Part shown: one piece after another, positions 3,913 through 63,341 of the stretch
Numbering within the stretch: position 1 is the first letter of the stretch
Layout: the number at the start of each line of letters is the position of its first letter
Assembly (NCBI GenBank): GCA_014740375.1
Contig: GCA_014740375.1_3041.1
DNA from: a phage
Reading direction: 5' to 3' (one strand)
Length of the DNA stretch: 64,000 nucleotides
Made by a program: the position numbers and the translations under genes
The notes under the pieces: model-generated
Databases searched by the model: none
Seen by the model: only the letters and a program-made list of their open reading frames with translations
Told to the model about the DNA's origin: nothing

Positions 3913-5337
3913 TTATGGATAGGTATAGATGATACCAGTTTCTAAAGCAGTTTTATGAATGATGTATCCATTACGTGATTCTTGAACATCAACTTCTGGA
4001 TAGTCTTTCATCATCTTCTGAAGAGTGTAACGATGCAGGTAGTATTTACTATCTGGATCTTCAGTTTTCCAATCTTTACCTTCTTCGGTCATTTTTTGGA
4101 TTTCATCCATAACCCACCAACCGCACCAGATATAAGCCGAAGTACGATGTGGAAGAGGATGAACATAAGGCAATTCACCTTCTGGTTCTGGAGCAACTTT
4201 ATCAGTTACCTGAACTTGACCTTCTGCTGTGATAGTTTTGCTATCATAATCAGTAGCAGTAACAGTTGCAGTAACTTCAATAGTTTGACTTCCAATAGAT
4301 GATGTATCAACGGTGTATACATTAGTTGACCCTTCTACTGGAGAAGAATCTTTCTTCCATGAATATTCAATTTGAGCTTCTTCTGGAGCATCAGTAACAT
4401 TAGCAGTAAATGTAGCCGAAGCATCTTGCTGAACGTTAATAGAAGGAGGAGTCAATGTAACCTGTGGATTCATTGTCTTCTTATTAACTGTTAATGATAC
4501 TTCATTAGAAGTAACTTCCTTTTCATTGTAATTTTCTGCAGTTACTTGCGCTACACACTTAACTGTTTTAGCTCCAACTGTGGTAGGAGTATAGTTAAAT
4601 GTAGAGTTAGTTTCTTCACCAATTTGAGAATCATCTACATACCATTGATATGTAGCAGACGCTCCATCGGGTTGAGAAACTAAGGCAGCAGTAAATTGAA
4701 CTGGGGTTCCAATAACTCCTGCTGGAGGACTATCAGGAGTTACTGTCAAGGTAGTTGTCTGCGTCTTTTTATTAACAGTCAGTGACACTTCATTAGAAGT
4801 AACTTCCTTTGCATCATAATCTGTCGCGGTTACTTGAGCTACACACTTAATTGTTTTAACTCCGCTTGCGTCAGGAGTGTAATTGAATGTAGTGCCAGTT
4901 GCTTCGCCCACAGGAGAACCGTCAACGTACCATTGATATGTAGCGTTTGCACCTGATGGCTGTGAAGCTAAGGCAGCAGTAAATTCAATTGGAGCTCCAA
5001 TCACTCCAGCATCAGGGCTACCAGGAGTTACAGCTAAGGTAGTTGTCTGTGTCTTATTTTGAACTGTGATAGTTGTCGTAGCTTCTGCTGTTTCAGGTTC
5101 AGATTCAGATTCTGGAACTGTATTTGTTGCAACGACTTTAATAGTCTTTTGACCGGCAGGTCCTTTTAATACATAATCAAAAGTTGCCGCCGATCCTTCT
5201 TGCGGAGCATTATCTACACTCCAAGCATAGGTAATAGTTCCACCTTCAGTTTGACCACTGGGTGCAGCAGTAAACTGCTTAGTTTCATCAATAACTCCAG
5301 TAGGTGTTTTAGGAGTTATATCAACTGTAAAAGTCAT
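3913..5337 (-). CDS. hoc: Hoc (highly immunogenic outer capsid protein) with four Ig-like domains
   Basis: 474 aa; Ig-like repeats plus C-terminal capsid-binding region; two adjacent domains are near-identical; T4 Hoc is 376 aa. Confidence 0.85.
   Translation of the reverse strand: MTFTVDITPKTPTGVIDETKQFTAAPSGQTEGGTITYAWSVDNAPQEGSAATFDYVLKGPAGQKTIKVVATNTVPESESEPETAEATTTITVQNKTQTTTLAVTPGSPDAGVIGAPIEFTAALASQPSGANATYQWYVDGSPVGEATGTTFNYTPDASGVKTIKCVAQVTATDYDAKEVTSNEVSLTVNKKTQTTTLTVTPDSPPAGVIGTPVQFTAALVSQPDGASATYQWYVDDSQIGEETNSTFNYTPTTVGAKTVKCVAQVTAENYNEKEVTSNEVSLTVNKKTMNPQVTLTPPSINVQQDASATFTANVTDAPEEAQIEYSWKKDSSPVEGSTNVYTVDTSSIGSQTIEVTATVTATDYDSKTITAEGQVQVTDKVAPEPEGELPYVHPLPHRTSAYIWCGWWVMDEIQKMTEEGKDWKTEDPDSKYYLHRYTLQKMMKDYPEVDVQESRNGYIIHKTALETGIIYTYP
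4477..5058 (-). repeat. Tandem direct repeat (2 x 291 bp) encoding duplicated Ig-like domain of Hoc
   Basis: Hoc residues ~94-190 and ~191-287 both run TQTTTL(A/T)VTP ... EVTSNEVSLTVNKK with ~75-80 percent identity. Confidence 0.8.
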
Positions 5338-16731: not shown

Positions 16732-16735
16732 CAAT

Positions 16736-16753
16736 GGGGACCGAAAGGTCCCC
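16736..16753. terminator. Terminator hairpin between convergent gene 54 and alt-region genes
   Basis: GGGGACC-GAAA-GGTCCCC followed by ATATTTTTATTT. Confidence 0.6.
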
Positions 16754-16759
16754 ATATTT

Positions 16760-17050
16760 TTATTTACGGAATGAAATAAAAGCAGCAACTGAAGCAACTA
16801 AACTGTCTTCAATATAAACTTCAATTTTTACCGGAGCTTCTGACTCAAATTTACCTGTTACTACGCCTTGGAAAATGCTTTCAGTCTGTTCTGGCTTTGA
16901 AAAATTTTCAGAAGGAAAAATTCCGAACTTTTTATCTGTTCCAAAAATTTTAATAAATTCATCGTAAACTGCTTCATTAAAAGCGTTATCAGCAGGAATA
17001 ACGCCTTCAACTACAAGTTCTTGACCTAAAAAGCGTAAAGAAGATTTCAT
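16760..17050 (-). CDS. Hypothetical early protein (alt.-3 position)
   Basis: 96-aa ORF directly downstream of an early promoter and GAGGA Shine-Dalgarno. Confidence 0.6.
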   Translation of the reverse strand: MKSSLRFLGQELVVEGVIPADNAFNEAVYDEFIKIFGTDKKFGIFPSENFSKPEQTESIFQGVVTGKFESEAPVKIEVYIEDSLVASVAAFISFRK

Positions 17051-17081
17051 TTTGTGTTCCTCATGTTATGTCAGTAAGATT

Positions 17082-17111
17082 ATTATAACACAACACGAGG
17101 GACTTGTAAAC
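17082..17111 (-). promoter_or_regulatory. T4-type early promoter
   Basis: Minus strand GTTTAC, 18 bp, TATAAT; part of a 54-bp cassette repeated at 32381-32434. Confidence 0.6.
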
Positions 17112-19168
17112 TACATCTTGAACTTTTTAGACATTCCGTTGATGTTAACCAAAGAAGCCAAGATTTGAGAAACTTCGTTTTCCTCTTCTTTTGATTCTTC
17201 TACAAGGAATTGATTAAACCCAGCCATTGGACGAACTTCGCCAGTTTCCATTAGATGATCGCCATCATATACCGATTCTTCTAATTGTTCAGAAGGAGGA
17301 ACGATTGTGCCTTCGATTAGATACTTGTTATAAGCAGTTTCTTTCATCATGTACGTGCTTACTTTATTAATCTTCAACAAAATTCCACGTGGTAGAATAA
17401 CTTCAGCTTCTGATGGAAATCCCGATAAATGACCTGGAACGATAACTTTGATTCGCTCAGCCCCTTTTATTACCATACCTACGCTAGTTTCAGCATCTTC
17501 ATTCGCATAAGCAGAATGACTGCCCATATGCATTAAATCTTCAGCATCAACAGAACCTTCTCCTTCACCAGAAAATACTGCGCCGGAATCATCTAGAGCC
17601 ATATAATTTTTACCATGCTCACCGAAGATATTTGGTTTAAGCGATGTTGATACGAAGTTCTTGAAATAGAACATTTTATTTTCAATATTATGGCGTAAAG
17701 TTTTAAAAGTAACTTCTTGTCCACGATAAAGCGTAGTTCCTGGAGGAAGAACTGAACCTTTGGCAAAGGCAGAATCCAGCGTCTCGATGTGTTTAATAGC
17801 TCGTTCCATATATTCTTCACGGGTAGAATCTGGTTTACCCAAGAGGAACGAGTTCATTTCAACATATGAATCTGCACAATAATCTTCAATTACATCAGAC
17901 TCAGCCTGAGTCAGTCCTTTTGGAGTTACTTCGGTGCTTGCGTATTCATATGCCTGAGCAGCAGATTCATTAATCAATTTATAAATGCCATTCATGACAA
18001 ATTGAATAATAGCTACCTTTTCGTCTGGTGTGGCTTTAGAACCTTTAACTAAATCATTGATAATTTTCTTAATAACATCAAAGCTATTAGAAATATTAAT
18101 GTCAGCGAGATCGCTCAAAATTTTATCGGTTTTATAATCAAAAAATTCTTTATTCTTTAAATATTCTTGAGAACCTTGATGTGTTATATCGCTCTGCAGT
18201 CTGATAGACGGATCACGTAAACGCGCATGGGCCAATGCAATATGATTTCGGAAGCTTTCTAGTTCATAATCGTTAGATTTAAAACGAGAAGCACTTCTCA
18301 TACCACCGATAGCTCCTTTGCCGAAGTTTGAACCAATCTGAATAACACCAGAGTTCATTGGTCCTTCTGCTTTATATACCGGAACTTTAGATTCAAACTC
18401 TTGATATTTCTTGGCAGCGAAGCTATCACCCTGAAGCGAAGCATCGACAGTAGAATATTGAGCTTGCGCTGCTAATCGACGACTAATTTTAGTTTTCTGA
18501 ATAACAGCTTGATCCGTGCGCTTATCATTTTCTAAAGCAATAGAAGCAGCAACAGCAACAGCTTTAGGAACAGCATTACCTGTTTTAACATCTACATAAA
18601 CATCACCAACCTTTGATTCAACTTTTGTGAATAACTCAGTTGAAATAGGAGGTACACCTGGAATGTCTTCTAAATTGGCATTTTTACGGTAAACCATAAT
18701 ATATGCATACTTTTTATCATAATCCCAGATTTCCTTTAAAAGAACATATCGACCTGCTCCTTTAGTACGTACTAAACGGTCAGCAATAACTTGCATTTGA
18801 CGAGCAGCGCCATTTGTTTTACTTTTTAGTACGCGGAATAGGCATGCGTCAATTTTGTACTGTTTCATTGTTTGAAGAGCAGTATCAAAAACCGCATTAA
18901 TGACACCAATTGGATTTCCACCCAAGTTTTTAAGTTTAACTAATGATAGTTTCTCATTGACACCTATCATTACGATATGCATCATTTTATCGCCTGGCTT
19001 AACGTTTTTATTTGTATCACCGCCAGAGGTGTATGTACAAAATCTAAATCCAGGAAGCACGCTTTCTTCACCGGCTTGAATAGCAAAAATTTGAGGTATT
19101 TTATGCTTAGGATTTAAGTTAACAACCGGCGCCGAAGCGCCGTCAAATAATTCTGTAATAAGTTCCAT
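17111..19168 (-). CDS. Alt-like ADP-ribosyltransferase, second paralog (685 aa)
   Basis: About 60-65 percent identical to upstream alt at both termini; ART R-S-E elements (YRG, FVSTSL, EAEVILPRG); divergent central region. Confidence 0.85.
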   Translation of the reverse strand: MELITELFDGASAPVVNLNPKHKIPQIFAIQAGEESVLPGFRFCTYTSGGDTNKNVKPGDKMMHIVMIGVNEKLSLVKLKNLGGNPIGVINAVFDTALQTMKQYKIDACLFRVLKSKTNGAARQMQVIADRLVRTKGAGRYVLLKEIWDYDKKYAYIMVYRKNANLEDIPGVPPISTELFTKVESKVGDVYVDVKTGNAVPKAVAVAASIALENDKRTDQAVIQKTKISRRLAAQAQYSTVDASLQGDSFAAKKYQEFESKVPVYKAEGPMNSGVIQIGSNFGKGAIGGMRSASRFKSNDYELESFRNHIALAHARLRDPSIRLQSDITHQGSQEYLKNKEFFDYKTDKILSDLADINISNSFDVIKKIINDLVKGSKATPDEKVAIIQFVMNGIYKLINESAAQAYEYASTEVTPKGLTQAESDVIEDYCADSYVEMNSFLLGKPDSTREEYMERAIKHIETLDSAFAKGSVLPPGTTLYRGQEVTFKTLRHNIENKMFYFKNFVSTSLKPNIFGEHGKNYMALDDSGAVFSGEGEGSVDAEDLMHMGSHSAYANEDAETSVGMVIKGAERIKVIVPGHLSGFPSEAEVILPRGILLKINKVSTYMMKETAYNKYLIEGTIVPPSEQLEESVYDGDHLMETGEVRPMAGFNQFLVEESKEEENEVSQILASLVNINGMSKKFKM

Positions 19169-19171
19169 GAT

Positions 19172-21268
19172 TTATCCTTGAACGAACTTGTAAGGCATGT
19201 TTGTAATATCTATGCAAGACGCAATAATTCCAAGAGATGATTCTACTTTTTGTTTAACATTTGATGAAACAAATGATGCAAAGTCAACTCTGTCTTCTAT
19301 TTCAATATCACCTGTCATTGCAACTACTTCACCAGTTTCCATTAGACGATCACCGTCATAAATTACTGATTCGGTGAGTTCTTCCGTAGTCATAACTTCA
19401 GCTTGAATGAGTTTTGTATTATTAGATGTTGTTCCGTCATTATTAGAAGCATCAGTTATTTTATTAACTTTGACCATCAATCCGCGTGGTAGAATAACTT
19501 CAGCTTCTGTTGCTATTCCGAGACTTCCTGGATATACAACATTAACTTTATGAGCTCCATCAATTGCCCATCCTATTTGAACTTTAACGTATTCAGGATT
19601 TTCTTTATACGCTCTTATTTCGTTTGGATTAATAGTTATTCCTTCTTCATTTTTATCAACTGTCAGTTCATTACGAGCTTCTGGTTCTAAAAGACCAATA
19701 CCAGCATGTGTAATTCCAAAACGTCCAAAAATGATAGGAGTTAAAGAAGTAGATACAAAATTTCTGAAATAGAACACTTTATTTTTAACTAGTGCTTCGT
19801 ATATAGGAGCAGTCATGCTTTGAGCACGATAAACTGTAATGCCTTCTGGTATACGGTCACCGTTTTCAAAAGCTGAATCTAAGTTATTTATAGCAGATTC
19901 AATTTCTTTTTCACTCATTACATCATATCGTTCTGGATTGTAGCGTCCTAAAAGAAGATTATTGATGTCAGTATATCCTGAACCACAATACTCTCTAATG
20001 CCGCGCTTTTGTGATGGAGTATATTTAGAACCATCACGGGCAATAGTAATATCAATCATTGGACCTGCACCAATTCCAGAAAAACTATAAATCATTCTTT
20101 TGAGGAATTTAGTTTTTGCTGCGTTCCAGGAATTTTTAGTTATTTCTTCCCAGACTTCATCTGGCTGCCCTTTACGAGTTTTATTATGTTTATCAAGCCA
20201 ATTATCTTTATATTCTTCAAAGAGTTGATTAACAGCTGCTGCGTATTTCTCTAAACATTTTATTGAAGTAGTTGGTTCATTTTTAATCGCATTAAGAATT
20301 ACATCTTTAATTTTTTCAGAAACTTCATTAACCTCACTTTTTGAAAAGAATTTATAGTCATAATGAAGTTCATCTGCAGTTCCTTCAGCAATAATTTTTG
20401 CTGCCTTAGTTTTAGAAGCTAATGAATTAATTCCAAGCTTCATTTCTTCTGCTTCGGGAATTAAAGGAGCGGTAGCAGGTTTATTGAAATTAGCTGCGGT
20501 AGATTCATACTTCTGGAATAATTCACTTTCAAATCTAGAAGATTCTAATGATTGACTTTGTGCAATTGCTCTACGGGAAATTTTAACTTTAACGATTACA
20601 GCTTGATCAGAACGTTTATCGTTTTCTTGCGCAATAGATGCAGCAATTGCCTCATTTTTAGTTACTTGAGCTCCGGTATCTTTATTGATATAAACATCAC
20701 CGACCTTCGATTCAACTTTAGTAAAGAGCTCTGTACTAATTTCCGGAACTCCTGGAATGTCTTCTAATGATACATTTTTGCGATGTATAAGAATATATGC
20801 GTACTTTTTATCGTAATCCCAGAGTTCCTTAAGAAGGACGTATCTGCCACCTGAACGACTACGGATAAGTCTATCAGCAATAAGTTGAATTTGACGAGCT
20901 TGACCAGCAGTTTTAGACTTAAGAATACGGAGCATGCAGGCATCAATTTTATACTGACGCATCGTCTGCATCGCAACAGTAAAAACTGAATTGATGTAAT
21001 TAATTGGGCTTGGACCGAGACCTTTTAATTTAGCGATTGAACCTTTAGCAGTTAATGTAAAAGGAACAATATGCATCATTTTATCGCCCATCTTTAAATC
21101 GCGATTAGTATCACCTCCAGATGTATAAGTACATAAACGAAAACCTGGTTGTTCAATTGCGTCATCAACATGAACTGAAAAAATTTGCGGTATTTTCTTC
21201 TTTGGATTTAAGTTTGTAATCGGAAGAGTAGTATCTTCGTCAAATAATTCTGTAATGAGTTCCATCAT
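19172..21268 (-). CDS. alt: Alt ADP-ribosyltransferase (virion-packaged)
   Basis: 698 aa; MELITELFD N-terminus; ART motifs (YRA, FVSTSL, EAEVILPRG); immediately downstream of gene 30 as in T4; late promoter upstream. Confidence 0.88.
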   Translation of the reverse strand: MMELITELFDEDTTLPITNLNPKKKIPQIFSVHVDDAIEQPGFRLCTYTSGGDTNRDLKMGDKMMHIVPFTLTAKGSIAKLKGLGPSPINYINSVFTVAMQTMRQYKIDACMLRILKSKTAGQARQIQLIADRLIRSRSGGRYVLLKELWDYDKKYAYILIHRKNVSLEDIPGVPEISTELFTKVESKVGDVYINKDTGAQVTKNEAIAASIAQENDKRSDQAVIVKVKISRRAIAQSQSLESSRFESELFQKYESTAANFNKPATAPLIPEAEEMKLGINSLASKTKAAKIIAEGTADELHYDYKFFSKSEVNEVSEKIKDVILNAIKNEPTTSIKCLEKYAAAVNQLFEEYKDNWLDKHNKTRKGQPDEVWEEITKNSWNAAKTKFLKRMIYSFSGIGAGPMIDITIARDGSKYTPSQKRGIREYCGSGYTDINNLLLGRYNPERYDVMSEKEIESAINNLDSAFENGDRIPEGITVYRAQSMTAPIYEALVKNKVFYFRNFVSTSLTPIIFGRFGITHAGIGLLEPEARNELTVDKNEEGITINPNEIRAYKENPEYVKVQIGWAIDGAHKVNVVYPGSLGIATEAEVILPRGLMVKVNKITDASNNDGTTSNNTKLIQAEVMTTEELTESVIYDGDRLMETGEVVAMTGDIEIEDRVDFASFVSSNVKQKVESSLGIIASCIDITNMPYKFVQG

Positions 21269-25678: not shown

Positions 25679-26011
25679 TTATTTTACTACTTTCCAGTGC
25701 TTCATGTCAAGTTTACCGACTTTTTTCATCTTCTCAATTAAGCGTTCTGCACGTTGGCGAGCTGTAACATAATGCCATTCACCTAATTCATTTTGTTCAA
25801 TTTTTCCAACGATTACTGTATTCAATTCATAAATCCAACCAGTAAAGAAATTATGAACTTGAATTGTAAAGGTGAAATCTGTTCCCATACCTTCTGTTGT
25901 TTCTACTTCAATAATATCACCTTCAACTGCCATTAAGAACCACATAGTTTCATCATATTTACCATTGAAGCATTTAGTTTTAACTGCAGCGTTCAGATTA
26001 ATCGTTTTCAT
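25679..26011 (-). CDS. Hypothetical protein
   Basis: 110-aa ORF with AAGGAG Shine-Dalgarno. Confidence 0.55.
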   Translation of the reverse strand: MKTINLNAAVKTKCFNGKYDETMWFLMAVEGDIIEVETTEGMGTDFTFTIQVHNFFTGWIYELNTVIVGKIEQNELGEWHYVTARQRAERLIEKMKKVGKLDMKHWKVVK

Positions 26012-26038: not shown

Positions 26039-26068
26039 ATACTATCACAAAGGAGCTATACTGTAAAC
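26039..26068 (-). promoter_or_regulatory. T4-type early promoter
   Basis: Minus strand GTTTAC, 18 bp, TAGTAT. Confidence 0.45.
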
Positions 26069-31529: not shown

Positions 31530-31879
31530 TTAGAAAGGTCCTGGATGTCTTCTGCGAACTTGTTGAAGGAGTTGTTGATTTGTTTTTCAACCAATCCTGG
31601 CTTATGAGCCACCACATCCGCCTTCTTTGCGTCTTTGCGCAGTTTTTCATTTTCACGCTCAATAGCAGCAATCGCCTCACGATTTTTATTATTCATCGCA
31701 TCAATATAATTATACTGAATTCGCAAATTATTTAATGCTAAGGCGTTTTCATTGGCCGTTTTTGTAATTTCTACAACAGACGTTTCTAATCTTTCAATTT
31801 TATTTTTTAAAATTAAAGAAGTTCCGCCCAATGCAATTACAATTAATAACAAGCCTGCTGTCGTATTACTTAATTGCAT
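31526..31879 (-). CDS. Inner-membrane spanin-like protein (i-spanin candidate)
   Basis: N-terminal transmembrane helix followed by coiled-coil-like periplasmic region; coupled to lipoprotein gene. Confidence 0.65.
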   Translation of the reverse strand: MQLSNTTAGLLLIVIALGGTSLILKNKIERLETSVVEITKTANENALALNNLRIQYNYIDAMNNKNREAIAAIERENEKLRKDAKKADVVAHKPGLVEKQINNSFNKFAEDIQDLSK

Positions 31880-32376
31880 AAAGTTTTAATAACCTCTATA
31901 ATATCGTCTTGAGAAAGACCGTTAATTAAAATATGATGTTCCGCCGGAGATTTAGAAATTTTAAAGCATGCCGCAACATCTTCTGCCATATCTGATGCGC
32001 TACGATTTGGATTACTAATTCCAAGACGATGTTTTCCCGTTAAAGGATTAACGATAATATAGCATTTGCAGCTATTGATATGAACATTGGGTTGAGTCTG
32101 ATTAATGAACACTTCACAATCATACTTAGCGAGTTGATTTTCTAAAAAGACTTTCATCTCTTCAACCGCATCAGGAAGCATATCACGGGCTTGCTCAAGA
32201 CGACGATTTCGATATTCTTTAATGGTCGTTTTCCGCTTGACTTGCTTAGCTAAATCTTTCTTAAGATCGGTGATATATCCAACTCGACGATTTCCTTTGA
32301 ATACAGAAATCCCATCTGTAGTATCACCGTATGCTTCAACGACCATTTCAGTAGTAATAAGTTGTAAATCCATCAT
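31870..32376 (-). CDS. alc: Alc (host transcription elongation inhibitor)
   Basis: 168 aa (167 from second Met); T4 position upstream of the pseT block; own early promoter. Confidence 0.75.
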   Translation of the reverse strand: MMDLQLITTEMVVEAYGDTTDGISVFKGNRRVGYITDLKKDLAKQVKRKTTIKEYRNRRLEQARDMLPDAVEEMKVFLENQLAKYDCEVFINQTQPNVHINSCKCYIIVNPLTGKHRLGISNPNRSASDMAEDVAACFKISKSPAEHHILINGLSQDDIIEVIKTLCN

Positions 32377-32404
32377 AAAGTCCTCATGTTATGTCAGTAA
32401 GACT

Positions 32405-32434
32405 ACTATAACACAACACGAGGGACTTGTAAAC
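32405..32434 (-). promoter_or_regulatory. T4-type early promoter for alc
   Basis: Minus strand GTTTAC, 18 bp, TATAGT; 54-bp cassette near-identical to 17058-17111. Confidence 0.6.
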
Positions 32435-32437
32435 AGC

Positions 32438-34025
<1,588 letters not shown>

Positions 34026-40824: not shown

Positions 40825-40854
40825 ATAGTATCACTACCATAGCCTGTTGTAAAC
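40825..40854 (-). promoter_or_regulatory. T4-type early promoter
   Basis: Minus strand GTTTAC, 18 bp, TACTAT. Confidence 0.5.
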
Positions 40855-41772: not shown

Positions 41773-41815
41773 ATTATTTTCCTCTTTAATCATCAGCAGT
41801 ATTGCCGATAGTTGT

Positions 41816-41845
41816 ATAGTACCATAGAAGGACAAGGATGTAAAC
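41816..41845 (-). promoter_or_regulatory. T4-type early promoter (cassette family B)
   Basis: Minus strand A/T-rich upstream tract, GTTTAC, 18 bp, TACTAT; flanks shared with 58928-58957 and 62736-62765. Confidence 0.55.
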
Positions 41846-41877
41846 CGTTTTGTGAAAAAAATTTTTGAAATAAAAAA

Positions 41878-45192: not shown

Positions 45193-48100
45193 ATGGCCGA
45201 GATTAAAAGAAAGTTCAGAGCAGAAGATGGTCTGGACGCAGGTGGTGATAAAATAATCAACGTAGCTTTAGCTGATCGTACCGTAGGAACTGACGGTGTT
45301 AACGTTGATTACTTAATTCAAGAAAACACAGTTCAACAATATGATCCAACTCGTGGATATTTAAAAGATTTTGTAATCATTTATGATAACCGCTTTTGGG
45401 CTGCTATAAATGATATTCCAAAACCAGCAGGAGCTTTTAATAGCGGACGCTGGAGAGCATTACGTACAGATGCTAACTGGATTACGGTTTCATCTGGTTC
45501 ATATCAATTAAAATCTGGTGAAGCAATTTCGGTTAACACTGCAGCTGGAAATGACATTACGTTTACTTTACCGTCTTCTCCAATTGATGGTGATACTATC
45601 GTTCTCCAAGATATTGGAGGAAAACCTGGAGTTAACCAAGTTTTAATTGTAGCTCCAGTGCAAAGTATTGTAAACTTTAGAGGTGAACAGGTACGTTCAG
45701 TACTAATGACTCATCCAAAGTCACAGCTAGTTTTAATTTTTAGTAATCGTCTGTGGCAAATGTATGTTGCTGATTATAGTAGAGAAGCTGTAATTGTAAC
45801 ACCAGCGAATACTTATCAAGCGCAATCAAATGATTTTATCGTACGTAGATTTACTTCTGCTGCACCAATTAATGTTAAACTTCCAAGATTTGCTAATCAT
45901 GGCGATATTATTAATTTCGTTGATTTAGATAAACTGAATCCACTTTATCATACAATTGTTACTACATACGATGAAACGACTTCAGTACAAGAAGTTGGAA
46001 CTCATTCCATTGAAGGCCGTACATCGATTGACGGTTTCTTGATGTTTGATGATAATGAGAAATTGTGGAGATTGTTTGACGGTGACAGTAAAGCGCGTTT
46101 ACGCATTATAACGACTAATTCTAATATTCGTCCAAATGAAGAAGTCATGGTATTTGGTGCGAATAACGGAACAACTCAGACAATTGAACTTCAGCTTCCA
46201 ACTAATATTTCTGTTGGTGATACTGTTAAAATTTCCATGAATTACATGAGAAAAGGACAAACAGTTAAAATCAAAGCTGCCGGTGAAGATAAAATTGCTT
46301 CTTCAGTTCAATTACTGCAATTCCCAAAACGCTCAGAATATCCGCCTGAAGCTGAGTGGGTTACAGTTCAAGAATTAGTTTTTAATGGTGAAACTAATTA
46401 TGTTCCAGTTCTAGAGCTTGCATATATTGAAGATTCTGATGGAAAATACTGGGTTGTACAGCAAAATGTTCCAACCGTAGAAAGAGTAGATTCTTTAAAT
46501 GATTCTACTAGAGCAAGATTAGGCGTAATTGCTTTAGCTACACAAGCTCAAGCTAATGCCGATTTAGAAAATTCTCCACAAAAAGAATTAGCAATTACTC
46601 CAGAAACGTTAGCTAATCGTACTGCTACTGAAACTCGCAGAGGTATTGCAAGAATAGCAACTACTGCTCAAGTGAATCAGAACACCACATTCTCTTTTGC
46701 TGATGATATTATCATCACTCCTAAAAAGCTGAATGAAAGAACTGCTACAGAAACTCGCAGAGGTGTCGCAGAAATTGCTACGCAACAGGAAACTAATACA
46801 GGTACTGATGATACAACCATCATTACTCCTAAAAAGCTTCAAGCTCGTCAAGGTTCTGAATCATTATCTGGTATTGTAACTTTTGTATCTACTGCAGGTG
46901 CTACTCCAGCTTCTAGCCGTGAATTAAATGGTACGAATGTTTATAATAAAAACACTAATAATTTAGTTGTTTCGCCAAAAGCTTTGGATCAGTATAAAGC
47001 TACGCCTACTCAACAGGGTGCAGTAATTTTAGCAGTTGAAAGTGAAGTAATTGCTGGACAAAGTCAGCAAGGATGGGCAAATGCTGTTGTAACGCCAGAA
47101 ACGTTACATAAAAAGACATCAACTGATGGAAGAATTGGTTTAATTGAAATTGCTACGCAAAGTGAAGTTAATACAGGAACTGATTATACTCGTGCAGTCA
47201 CTCCTAAAACTTTAAATGACCGTAGAGCAACTGAAAGTTTAAGTGGTATAGCTGAAATTGCTACACAAGTTGAATTCGACGCAGGCGTCGACGATACTCG
47301 TATCTCTACACCATTAAAAATTAAAACCAGATTTAATAGTACTGATCGTACTTCTGTTGTTGCTCTATCTGGATTAGTTGAATCAGGAACTCTCTGGGAC
47401 CATTATACCCTTAATATTCTTGAAGCAAATGAGACACAGCGTGGTACACTTCGTGTAGCTACACAGGTTGAAGCTGCTGCAGGAACATTAGATAATGTTT
47501 TAATAACTCCTAAAAAGCTTTTAGGTACTAAATCTACTGAAGCACAGGAAGGTGTTATTAAAGTTGCAACTCAGTCTGAAACTGTGACTGGAACATCAGC
47601 AAATACTGCTGTATCTCCAAAAAATTTAAAATGGATTGTGCAGAGTGAACCTACCTGGGCAGCTACTACTGCGATAAGAGGTTTTGTTAAAACTTCATCT
47701 GGTTCAATTACATTCGTTGGTAATGATACAGTCGGTTCTACCCAAGATTTAGAACTGTATGAGAAAAATAGCTATGCAGTATCACCATATGAATTAAACC
47801 GTGTATTAGCAAATTATTTGCCGTTAAAAGCAAAAGCTGTAGATAGTAATTTATTGGATGGTCTAGATTCATCTCAGTTCATTCGTAGGGATATTGCACA
47901 GACGGTTAATGGTTCACTAACCTTAACCCAACAAACGAATCTGAGTGCCCCTCTTGTATCATCTAGTACTGCTACGTTTGGTGGTTCAGTTTCGGCAAAT
48001 AGTACATTAACTATTTCTAATACTGGAACAGCAACTCGTCTGATTTTTGAAAAAGGACCTCAAACTGGAACTAACCCAGCACAGACGATGACTATCAGAG

Positions 48101-58886: not shown

Positions 58887-58927
58887 TTTCTAATCTCCGT
58901 AATTCTGTATCAGTAGTTGATAGTTGT

Positions 58928-58957
58928 ATAGTACCACAGTATGCTTTGGTTGTAAAC
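58928..58957 (-). promoter_or_regulatory. Early promoter for motA (cassette family B)
   Basis: Minus strand A/T-rich upstream tract, GTTTAC, 18 bp, TACTAT. Confidence 0.6.
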
Positions 58958-58988
58958 CGTTTTGTGAAAAAATTTTAAAATAAAAAAA

Positions 58989-62077: not shown

Positions 62078-62191
62078 TCACATAAATCCAAAATAAGCGT
62101 TTAATACATCAATCATTAAAACGATTGGGAATATACTCAAAACTATTAGTATTATAACTACATTCCATATAGCTTTAATAATCTTTTTCAT
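62078..62191 (-). CDS. Small membrane peptide (37 aa)
   Basis: GGAGG Shine-Dalgarno downstream of an early promoter; track ORF over-extended through the promoter. Confidence 0.4.
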   Translation of the reverse strand: MKKIIKAIWNVVIILIVLSIFPIVLMIDVLNAYFGFM

Positions 62192-62219
62192 TTTCTGTTC
62201 CTCCGTAGTTGATAGGGTA

Positions 62220-62249
62220 ATAGTACCACGGAAGAACAGTCTTGTAAAC
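62220..62249 (-). promoter_or_regulatory. T4-type early promoter
   Basis: Minus strand GTTTAC, 18 bp, TACTAT. Confidence 0.5.
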
Positions 62250-62434
62250 AACTTTTTTAAAAATATTCGTAATAAATGTGAATACCAACTACTACCGCTG
62301 AAACCTGTGCAACCCACCACGCACAAGCAATAAGTACAGAATTCAAAATTTTCATAATAACCTCATCACAAAAGTAAATGTTAAACAAATTACTGGAATA
62401 CTAATTAACCAAACAAAACACCACCATAATGAAC

Positions 62435-62698: not shown

Positions 62699-62735
62699 TT
62701 TATTCTCCAAATCCGTATCAGTAGTTGATAGTTGT

Positions 62736-62765
62736 ATAGTACCACGGTCCTTGTGGTATGTAAAC
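62736..62765 (-). promoter_or_regulatory. T4-type early promoter (cassette family B)
   Basis: Minus strand A/T-rich upstream tract, GTTTAC, 18 bp, TACTAT. Confidence 0.55.
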
Positions 62766-62783
62766 CGTTTTGTGAAAAAATTT

Positions 62784-63341
62784 TTAAATGGAAAGATACC
62801 ATCCGTTGTAGTTGCTTTTTCTTACAACCTTACGAAGGTCTTCTCTGTCACCGATGAACTTCGGAGTGTACTGGATGACACCTGGATGAATTTCTTTAGT
62901 GTTGAATATAATTATACAGTCAGCGACTTGATGATTTAGAATGGGCCCTAAATTTATTCCAGAACCATATGGATACTCTCCGCTGCATCCCGTTGTTACC
63001 GAAATCCAACGCGAGTCAGTTTGATGTGTTTTGACTTCTACACGAAGCCCGCAATATTTTGGATGCGCTAAAACATCCCATGCATACGTGTACGGATCAT
63101 CGACATTTTCTTGGCCTTTATTGACATATCCGCTTAGCCAATCTGCCACAAAAAACTCTGCGTACACAGCGATACGGCATCTTTCGATAACTTCTGCTTT
63201 ATCCTGGTTCGGGTTTTGTTTTAAAGAGTATCTTGCTGTATCAGCAATTTTGACCTTCATTTCACTAGTCAAGTCACTGTTCGATAGGGTAAATGTCGGA
63301 ATCTGAAATAGTCTCTGTAACCCAGGATTCGTTTTCTGCAT
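62784..63341 (-). CDS. denB: Endonuclease IV-like protein
   Basis: 185 aa, same length and map position as T4 denB (upstream of ndd cluster); assignment by length and synteny. Confidence 0.6.
   Translation of the reverse strand: MQKTNPGLQRLFQIPTFTLSNSDLTSEMKVKIADTARYSLKQNPNQDKAEVIERCRIAVYAEFFVADWLSGYVNKGQENVDDPYTYAWDVLAHPKYCGLRVEVKTHQTDSRWISVTTGCSGEYPYGSGINLGPILNHQVADCIIIFNTKEIHPGVIQYTPKFIGDREDLRKVVRKSNYNGWYLSI

Follow-up and report, generated by a model that had tools for sequence, protein, structure and literature searches.

Genomic context of the two cassette copies

The analysed DNA, a stretch of 64,000 nt whose full length we refer to as the window, belongs to a Tequatrovirus; within the test region, it shares 99.2% identity with Escherichia phage HY01. 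Locus identities were taken from the annotations of HY01 and T4. Two intergenic units on the minus strand are considered here as copy A and copy B of one cassette. Copy A (17058..17111) makes up the whole intergenic unit between an Alt-like gene and alt.-3, a locus that is conserved in about 500 Tequatrovirus records. Copy B (32381..32434) forms the intergenic unit between rnlA and alc and is labelled 'predicted early promoter' in the annotation of Yersinia phage fPS-65.

Both cassettes lead directly into a gene on the same strand. According to the original prediction, each copy continues with a GAGGA leader and an ATG, namely that of a 96-aa ORF and of alc, respectively. This is what we find, and the 96-aa ORF can now be named: the gene driven by copy A is alt.-3 (16760..17050, minus strand), the ATG of which follows 7 nt past GAGGA. 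For T4, alt.-3 mutants with a C-terminal extension are known to escape CmdTAC (PMC11618068). The gene behind copy B is alc (31870..32373, minus strand), an inhibitor of host transcription. Its start is the second ATG, again 7 nt past GAGGA and as given in the T4 annotation, i.e., the mechanical ORF begins one codon earlier at 32376.

Upstream of copy A lies an Alt-like ADP-ribosyltransferase paralog (17111..19168, minus strand), the read-through RNA of which would contain the full hairpin of copy A (see below). Upstream of copy B we find rnlA (gene 63; 32438..33598, minus strand), for which the listed ORF start is a mechanical GTG and not necessarily the true start. Both upstream genes end at the promoter: the final G (17111) of the TAG stop of the Alt-like gene is at the same time the G of GTTTAC in copy A, and the TAA stop of rnlA is located 3 nt ahead of GTTTAC in copy B. 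An upstream stop codon at or right beside the -35 element is present in every genus examined.

The Alt-like gene next to copy A is part of a tandem of two full-length Alt-like ADP-ribosyltransferase genes (17111-19168 and 19172-21268, both minus strand), i.e., copy A adjoins a variable block of alt paralogs. Two full alt-like genes, as in the window, are also present in T6 and HP3.2; elsewhere, the block comprises one alt and the remnants alt.-1 and alt.-2 (T4), a single alt (PST) or three (WG01). Copy B resides in the rnlA-alc junction, which is conserved in all genera examined.

Two further features accompany the cassettes. Between gene 54 and the end of alt.-3, the terminator scan reports a bidirectional terminator-like hairpin (16734..16755, not assigned to one strand), which forms a perfect, GC-rich 9-bp stem between these two convergent genes. 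The T-run behind it qualifies as a terminator tail on the plus strand only; the tail on the minus strand (TGTTATATTG) is also listed by the scan. The hairpin is probably the terminator of gene 54 and might close the short alt.-3 unit as well. Furthermore, an AUG within the leader (AUGAGGA) opens a mini-ORF of 5 or 4 codons (17048-17066 and 32371-32389, minus strand). It has no SD (Shine-Dalgarno) sequence of its own, its UGA stop overlaps the start-codon region (AUGA) of alt.-3 or alc, and it is probably incidental.

Identity and distribution of the copies

Near-identical 54-bp segments with about three mismatches had been reported for 17058-17111 and 32381-32434. Both segments were recovered at these coordinates and their pairwise alignment is ungapped with 52/54 identical positions, i.e., the number of mismatches has to be corrected to two. 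Each of them is a T/C difference on the plus strand, located in the -10 box or just 3' of it (minus strand: copy A TATAATAAT, copy B TATAGTAGT). The longest perfect blocks within the 54 bp comprise 29 and 22 bp, and the likeness of the two copies ends sharply at either edge of the cassette.

To this identity we relate two backgrounds. Dinucleotide shuffles of the window gave no match to the cassette with at most 3 mismatches, such that the chance expectation is zero. The 18 early-promoter candidates of the window, compared pair by pair over the corresponding 54 nt, share 33/54 positions on average (sd 3.4). Copies A and B (52/54) are the top outlier among all pairs of these candidates, followed by a second-best pair with 49/54. 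That is, compared to the typical value of 33/54, the identity of A and B extends well past the common promoter consensus. The repeat is real and non-random.

We also considered a repeat at the coding level. BLASTP gave no alignment of Alt.-3 with Alc, i.e., the downstream proteins are unrelated, and a resemblance between their ELVVEG and EMVVEA motifs was abandoned on the same grounds. The repeat thus stops short of the coding sequence.

A BLAST search of the phage collection with the 54-mer finds the full cassette in about 500 phage records, all from the T4 group, with exactly two copies per genome in every record listed. This includes T4, where the copies are 53/54 identical and vary at a site that differs from those of the window. 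An IMG/VR scan with a 28-mer returned 6 loci only; the GenBank phage collection is far richer in this respect.

Collecting 26 copies from fetched genomes, we observe 12 haplotypes. The commonest one is identical at both loci (GTTTACAAGTCCCTCGTGTTGTGTTATAGTAGTCTTACTGACATAACATGAGGA), and some genomes (L005/L006) carry 54/54-identical copies. The variants are locus-specific and coexist within one genome, e.g., in IME340, T6 and PST; IME340 and T6 combine 11T/15T/16A in copy A with 27C in copy B. Such a pattern would fit one old copying event with subsequent independent drift.

Early promoter within each copy

In copy A, the -35 hexamer TTTACA (17105..17110) is followed by an extended -10 element (TGT + TATAAT, 17082..17090) and, from geometry only, a predicted transcription start at an A 7 nt past the -10 box (17075). 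Copy B shows TTTACA at 32428..32433, TGT + TATAGT at 32405..32413 and a predicted transcription start at 32398 (all on the minus strand). Copy A matches the sigma-70 consensus in 11/12 positions and copy B in 10/12, with a 17-bp spacer and TGn present in both. The initial minus-strand reading, i.e., GTTTAC, 18 bp and TATAAT/TATAGT, is therefore equivalent to the canonical TTTACA-17-TATAAT arrangement with a TG-extended -10. The leader spans about 25 nt and contains GAGGA at 17058-17062 (copy A) or 32381-32385 (copy B).

T4 early promoters are known to combine -35, TGn and -10 elements with further consensus regions (PMC2988021). Within the window, all candidate promoters show GTTTAC, TG.TA..AT and a C(T)TAC start region. 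The 30 nt upstream of each cassette promoter are coding and consist of about 67-70% A+T (direct count), which is near the genome average; clear A/T tracts are found upstream of other promoters in the window.

Time-resolved data for T4 list alt.-3 and alc as early, both on the RNA and on the protein level (PMC9697503 supplement). The genes alt, alt.-1 and alt.-2, just upstream of alt.-3, are scored as middle at the RNA level in T4, and the rnlA protein appears late (same supplement). The T4 timing of alt.-3 and alc fits an early promoter at each copy. Judged by their sequence elements, the alt.-3 and alc cassettes are strong sigma-70 early promoters with predicted start sites.

A predicted hairpin connects promoter spacer and Shine-Dalgarno sequence

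The sense RNA of the cassette folds into a long hairpin with a helix of 14-15 bp across the -10 box. The 5' arm (CCUCGUGUUGUGUUA, cassette positions 12-26) is located in the -35/-10 spacer and includes the anti-SD motif CCUC. The 3' arm (UGACAUAACAUGAGG, cassette positions 39-53) is located in the leader and pairs through GAGG, such that the loop holds the -10 box and the predicted +1 (cassette position 37). Within the window, the RNA folds place the 5' arm at 17086..17100 and the 3' arm (leader and SD) at 17059..17073 for copy A. The respective minus-strand positions for copy B are 32409..32423 (promoter spacer with anti-SD) and 32382..32396 (leader and SD). The upstream stop codon is found about 10 nt before the 5' arm.

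For the sense RNA, we obtained an MFE of -24.9 kcal/mol for copy A (z -4.5) and of -27.3 kcal/mol for copy B (z -4.2). RNA that begins at the predicted +1 is without structure (z about 0). The antisense RNA shows far weaker folding (MFE of -17.8 and -15.4 kcal/mol, z about -1.8), which is explained by three G.U pairs in the hairpin. As these three correspond to G.T in DNA, the DNA inverted-repeat finder also missed the stem. The energies argue for a hairpin that would act in the sense RNA rather than in the DNA.

In the predicted fold of upstream-initiated RNA, GAGG is fully paired for both copies. On the other hand, RNA from the cassette promoter is expected to be without the 5' arm, given the geometry of the predicted +1 (position 37) and the arm (positions 12-26). 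The stem is not followed by a U-tract, and the terminator scan gave no hit at either copy. Likewise, no Rfam family matched anywhere in the window at the gathering threshold; a mir-5 match at copy B, seen at a relaxed threshold, was rejected as a chance hit (E = 0.85). A search of the literature accessible to us returned neither 5'-end mapping or translation data for the two promoters nor anything specific on an alc hairpin; the pair may already have been described in older T4 papers.

Comparison across genera

We compared the rnlA-alc intergenic region from eight other genera as well as the alt-alt.-3 region from four. At the alc locus, an anti-SD arm that pairs with the SD region follows right after GTTTACA in seven genera, i.e., Tequatro-, Gelderland-, Jiaoda-, Kanagawa-, Winkler-, Karam- and Dhakavirus. 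The sequences of the arms vary by genus yet remain complementary (UCUCCGUUUAGU/ACUAAACGGAGA, UCCUCAUCAG/CUGAUGAGGA, UCCUCAUUUCGUU/AACGAAAUGAGGA and UCUCCAUUUG/CAAAUGGAGA), and the respective hairpins show MFE values from -18 to -25 kcal/mol (z -3.9 to -5.4).

Chimeras of the alc halves provide a direct measure of this complementarity: cognate halves have on average -21.2 kcal/mol compared to -13.2 kcal/mol for swapped ones. Among the 5040 permutations, only the identity permutation reaches the cognate mean energy. As read from this comparison of sequences, the pairing at alc is kept by compensatory changes in seven genera. RNAalifold gave no consensus pairs for nine cassettes in a plain MAFFT alignment, since the register of the arms varies from genus to genus. 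We thus replaced it by per-sequence folds together with the chimera and permutation test.

Exceptions are observed at alc for Tegunavirus, where the hairpin encloses the -10 box and its stem does not include the SD, and for RB69 (Mosigvirus), which is without such a hairpin. Within Tequatrovirus, stem substitutions are mixed: pairing is preserved by three types (16G>A, 15C>U, 40G>A) and lost through four others (13C>A, 40G>U, 16G>U, 29G>A). It is thus mainly the comparison between genera that supports the structure.

In Gapriver-, Karam-, Mosig- and Dhakavirus, the alt.-3 promoter contains a small spacer palindrome only and leaves the SD free (z +1.2 to -1.5). Since these outgroup promoters are without the hairpin while it is present at alc, the hairpin design is ancestral at alc. 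From this we infer the direction of transfer, i.e., the alc cassette most likely overwrote the alt.-3 promoter in the ancestor of Tequatrovirus. Both promoter types have GTTTACA and CATGAGGA in common, and these could have marked the limits of a converted stretch of about 40 bp. The initial view of promoter plus leader as a modular unit is supported: the T4 early-promoter consensus is present, and the other genera indicate the transplant of a block.

Parts of the cassette were also observed at other loci. In Mosigvirus JS09, the promoter before mobD.2a (L016 1180-1250) shares GGTTGTGTTATAGTAGTCCTTACT with the cassette, and a terminator hairpin is located directly upstream of this promoter. In Mosigvirus G53, a promoter near ndd (L018 680-745) shares CATGAGGAACACAAAATG. 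Cassette pieces thus seem to move between loci as well as between genera.

Relation to known T4-type systems

Further sources for T4 early promoters (Pe) are reportedly Wilkens & Ruger and Miller 2003, and Repoila 1994 is said to describe repeated promoter elements at T-even IP loci. The cassette shares with the T4 early promoters, i.e., the 'uber' UP/-35/TGn/-10 sigma-70 promoters (Hinton 2010, PMC2988021), the GTTTAC-type -35 element, the 17-bp spacer, TGn and a TATAAT-like -10 box. Like them, it is placed directly before genes that are early in T4. It appears to differ in that an A/T-rich UP element is not clearly recognisable, since the upstream DNA is coding, and it differs in that the pair is identical far past the consensus of this promoter class.

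A similar architecture is that of the PeSL (promoter-early stem-loop) cassettes, in which an early promoter is combined with a stem-loop, frequently across the -10 box, and the unit finishes with SD and ATG (PMC2839356; PMC4122927); the PeSL set of Comeau 2014 (PMC4122927) includes the PST/T4 pair. Upstream stop, early promoter, stem-loop over the -10 box, SD and ATG form the build that is shared with PeSL (Arbiol 2010, PMC2839356), and the cassette likewise behaves as a transplantable module with multiple copies per genome. In the PeSL papers, the stem-loop is treated as terminator/attenuator and as recombination site, and translation is not discussed (PMC2839356). In contrast to PeSL, the 3' arm of our cassette is the SD itself and no U-tract follows; moreover, copy B is found in a conserved syntenic place and no recombination product is present among 500 records.

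A related logic is known from the T4 genes e, soc, 49 and I-TevI, which combine an SD-sequestering helix with an internal promoter (PMC3014915, section 29). That is, the SD is hidden in the long RNA, and RNA from the inner promoter is translatable as it is without the 5' arm, which is here a prediction for the cassette. In these genes, however, the inner promoter is a late one (TATAAATA) and the silenced RNAs are early or middle. The inner promoter of the cassette is an early sigma-70 promoter, not a late TATAAATA one, and its own spacer serves as the 5' arm.

Taken together, the cassette fits as a further, well-conserved example of the T4 early promoter/PeSL class. Going beyond the original prediction, the promoter spacer doubles as an anti-SD arm that covaries at alc in the sequences compared.

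Proposed mechanism and alternative explanations

We consider it rather probable that A and B are two copies of one T4-type early promoter-in-hairpin cassette, that the copying went from alc to alt.-3, and that the hairpin gates translation, where the gating is a prediction from the folding model. RNA from the cassette's own promoter, being without the 5' arm, would present an open ribosome-binding site. Read-through RNA from the Alt-like gene or rnlA would contain both arms, and its ribosome-binding site would be masked. Practically the sole source of Alt.-3 and Alc would then be their own early transcripts; alternatively, read-through RNA might be translated only when coupled to the upstream ORF. 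After the copying to alt.-3, both copies would have drifted independently under purifying selection. Such gating, if true, would explain why Alc and Alt.-3 are strictly early even though both are encoded downstream of later-transcribed genes. This is of relevance, as Alc is a potent inhibitor of host transcription and Alt.-3 has been linked to CmdTAC escape.

The near-identity of the copies might also have other origins. Two strong early promoters could have converged on one optimum, without any copying and with a hairpin that has no role. This draws on the consensus of T4 early promoters beyond -35, TGn and -10 (PMC2988021) and on the GTTTAC, TG.TA..AT and C(T)TAC start-region motifs of all candidates in the window. 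It is nevertheless barely credible, given that typical pairs reach about 33/54 and A/B 52/54, that the identity spans spacer and leader, which vary freely among other promoters, that the alt.-3 promoter orthologs of four other genera have a different spacer, and that the arms covary across genera. The original prediction had proposed that the repeats could mediate deletion or duplication of the intervening 15 kb. This found no support: neither the deletion-type (rnlA-cassette-alt.-3) nor the duplication-type junction (alt-cassette-alc), both searched with synthetic queries, occurs in any of 500 records, and each record listed has its two copies. The 15 kb between the copies contain two genes essential in T4, namely 30 (DNA ligase) and 31 (co-chaperonin), such that the deletion product would be inviable, and a duplication would add 15.3 kb, which is above the few kb of terminal redundancy provided by the headful packaging of T4. 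We thus regard it as very unlikely that the repeats are mainly recombination substrates by which the 15 kb are deleted, duplicated or released as a PeSL-like circle. In favour of such a role, PeSL pairs are known to recombine into mini-circles in RB49 and phi1, but the documented circles are 0.4-1.4 kb in size and arise from neighbouring PeSLs (PMC2839356). About 50 bp of homology suffices for recombination in T4 (Singer 1982, as cited in PMC2839356), and the longest perfect blocks of A and B measure 29 and 22 bp, such that rare transient ectopic exchange would still be possible. We see no evidence that such exchange has shaped any sequenced genome. Finally, ongoing gene conversion between the loci, i.e., concerted evolution, could uphold the near-identity. 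It would account for genomes with 54/54-identical copies (L005/L006) and for 16G>A occurring at both loci in different phages. We rejected it as quite improbable, since the variants are locus-specific and coexist unhomogenised, e.g., in IME340 and T6. In addition, the sampled copies look clustered by locus and not by genome, and one commonest sequence at both loci is what one old copying event plus drift would leave.

A second group of alternatives concerns the role of the hairpin. As proposed for PeSL, it might be an attenuator/terminator or a 3'-end stabiliser of the Alt-like and rnlA mRNAs, which we judge to be unlikely. In its favour, a PeSL stem-loop was reported to lower the expression of lacZ behind it to an extent comparable with a strong terminator (PMC2839356), the alc hairpin of Tegunavirus brackets the -10 box and leaves the SD untouched, and three other promoters of the window show a -10-bracketing hairpin with free SD. 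On the other hand, a U-tract after the stem is missing and the terminator scan is empty at both copies. Furthermore, throughout the seven genera the SD forms the end of the 3' arm and the anti-SD is part of the 5' arm, neither of which is needed by a pure terminator. Gating might also be relieved by translational coupling, i.e., a ribosome that ends at the upstream stop would melt the base of the anti-SD:SD helix. The upstream stop at or next to the -35 element in every genus examined is consistent with this, and the 5' arm presumably lies in or near the footprint of the terminating ribosome. However, only the first few pairs would be reached and the remaining pairs, at least 10, could keep the SD, which makes coupling fairly improbable.

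Related promoters and further repeats in the window

The predicted combination of promoter spacer and anti-SD arm recurs in the window with unrelated sequence. The design of alc and alt.-3, i.e., a spacer that pairs with the SD, is also shown by the promoter before gene 30.8 (GTTTAC at 26068, start codon at 26011, MFE -14.6, z -3.4) and by the one before a 37-aa ORF (GTTTAC at 62249, start codon at 62191, MFE -22.7, z -5.5). Other promoters form hairpins that involve only the -10 box and leave the SD free (GTTTAC at 40854, 29128 (cd.2) and 25676 (30.7); z -3.8 to -5.0). They precede 30.7, cd.2 and an 80-aa ORF and look like PeSL stem-loops.

Early promoters with an anti-SD spacer could thus be a general, portable 'promoter-locked translation' module of T-even-type phages, which we find quite conceivable, if somewhat short of probable. 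With such a module, protein would come only from transcripts born at that very promoter, and synthesis would end once the early promoters shut off, despite the presence of read-through RNA. Conversion patches of about 40 bp could move the complete module, which apparently happened from alc to alt.-3. If true, a classic T4 control principle would be extended from late to early promoters, and the PeSL stem-loops, hitherto read as terminators or recombination sites only, would gain a functional reason. Since regulatory units of T4-like phages would be overwritable as blocks, promoter orthology could not be assumed from gene synteny.

A second family of early-promoter cassettes is found on the minus strand at 41789-41874, 58901-58986, 62193-62278 and 62709-62794. 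Its members have in common GTTTAC, TGGTACTAT and, upstream, a tract rich in A/T. Aligned over 86 nt, the copies at 58901 and 62709 agree in 84% of the positions, with 49/54 identical positions in the promoter core.

A 288-nt tandem repeat with 77% identity (4475-5050) lies within ORF 3913..5337 (minus strand), a Hoc-like head decoration gene of 474 aa, and probably reflects repeated Ig-like domains. Finally, at 46594-47519, a stretch of about 1 kb contains several families of short direct repeats (33-68 nt, 66-84% identity), which may correspond to a repeated peptide motif in a large structural gene.
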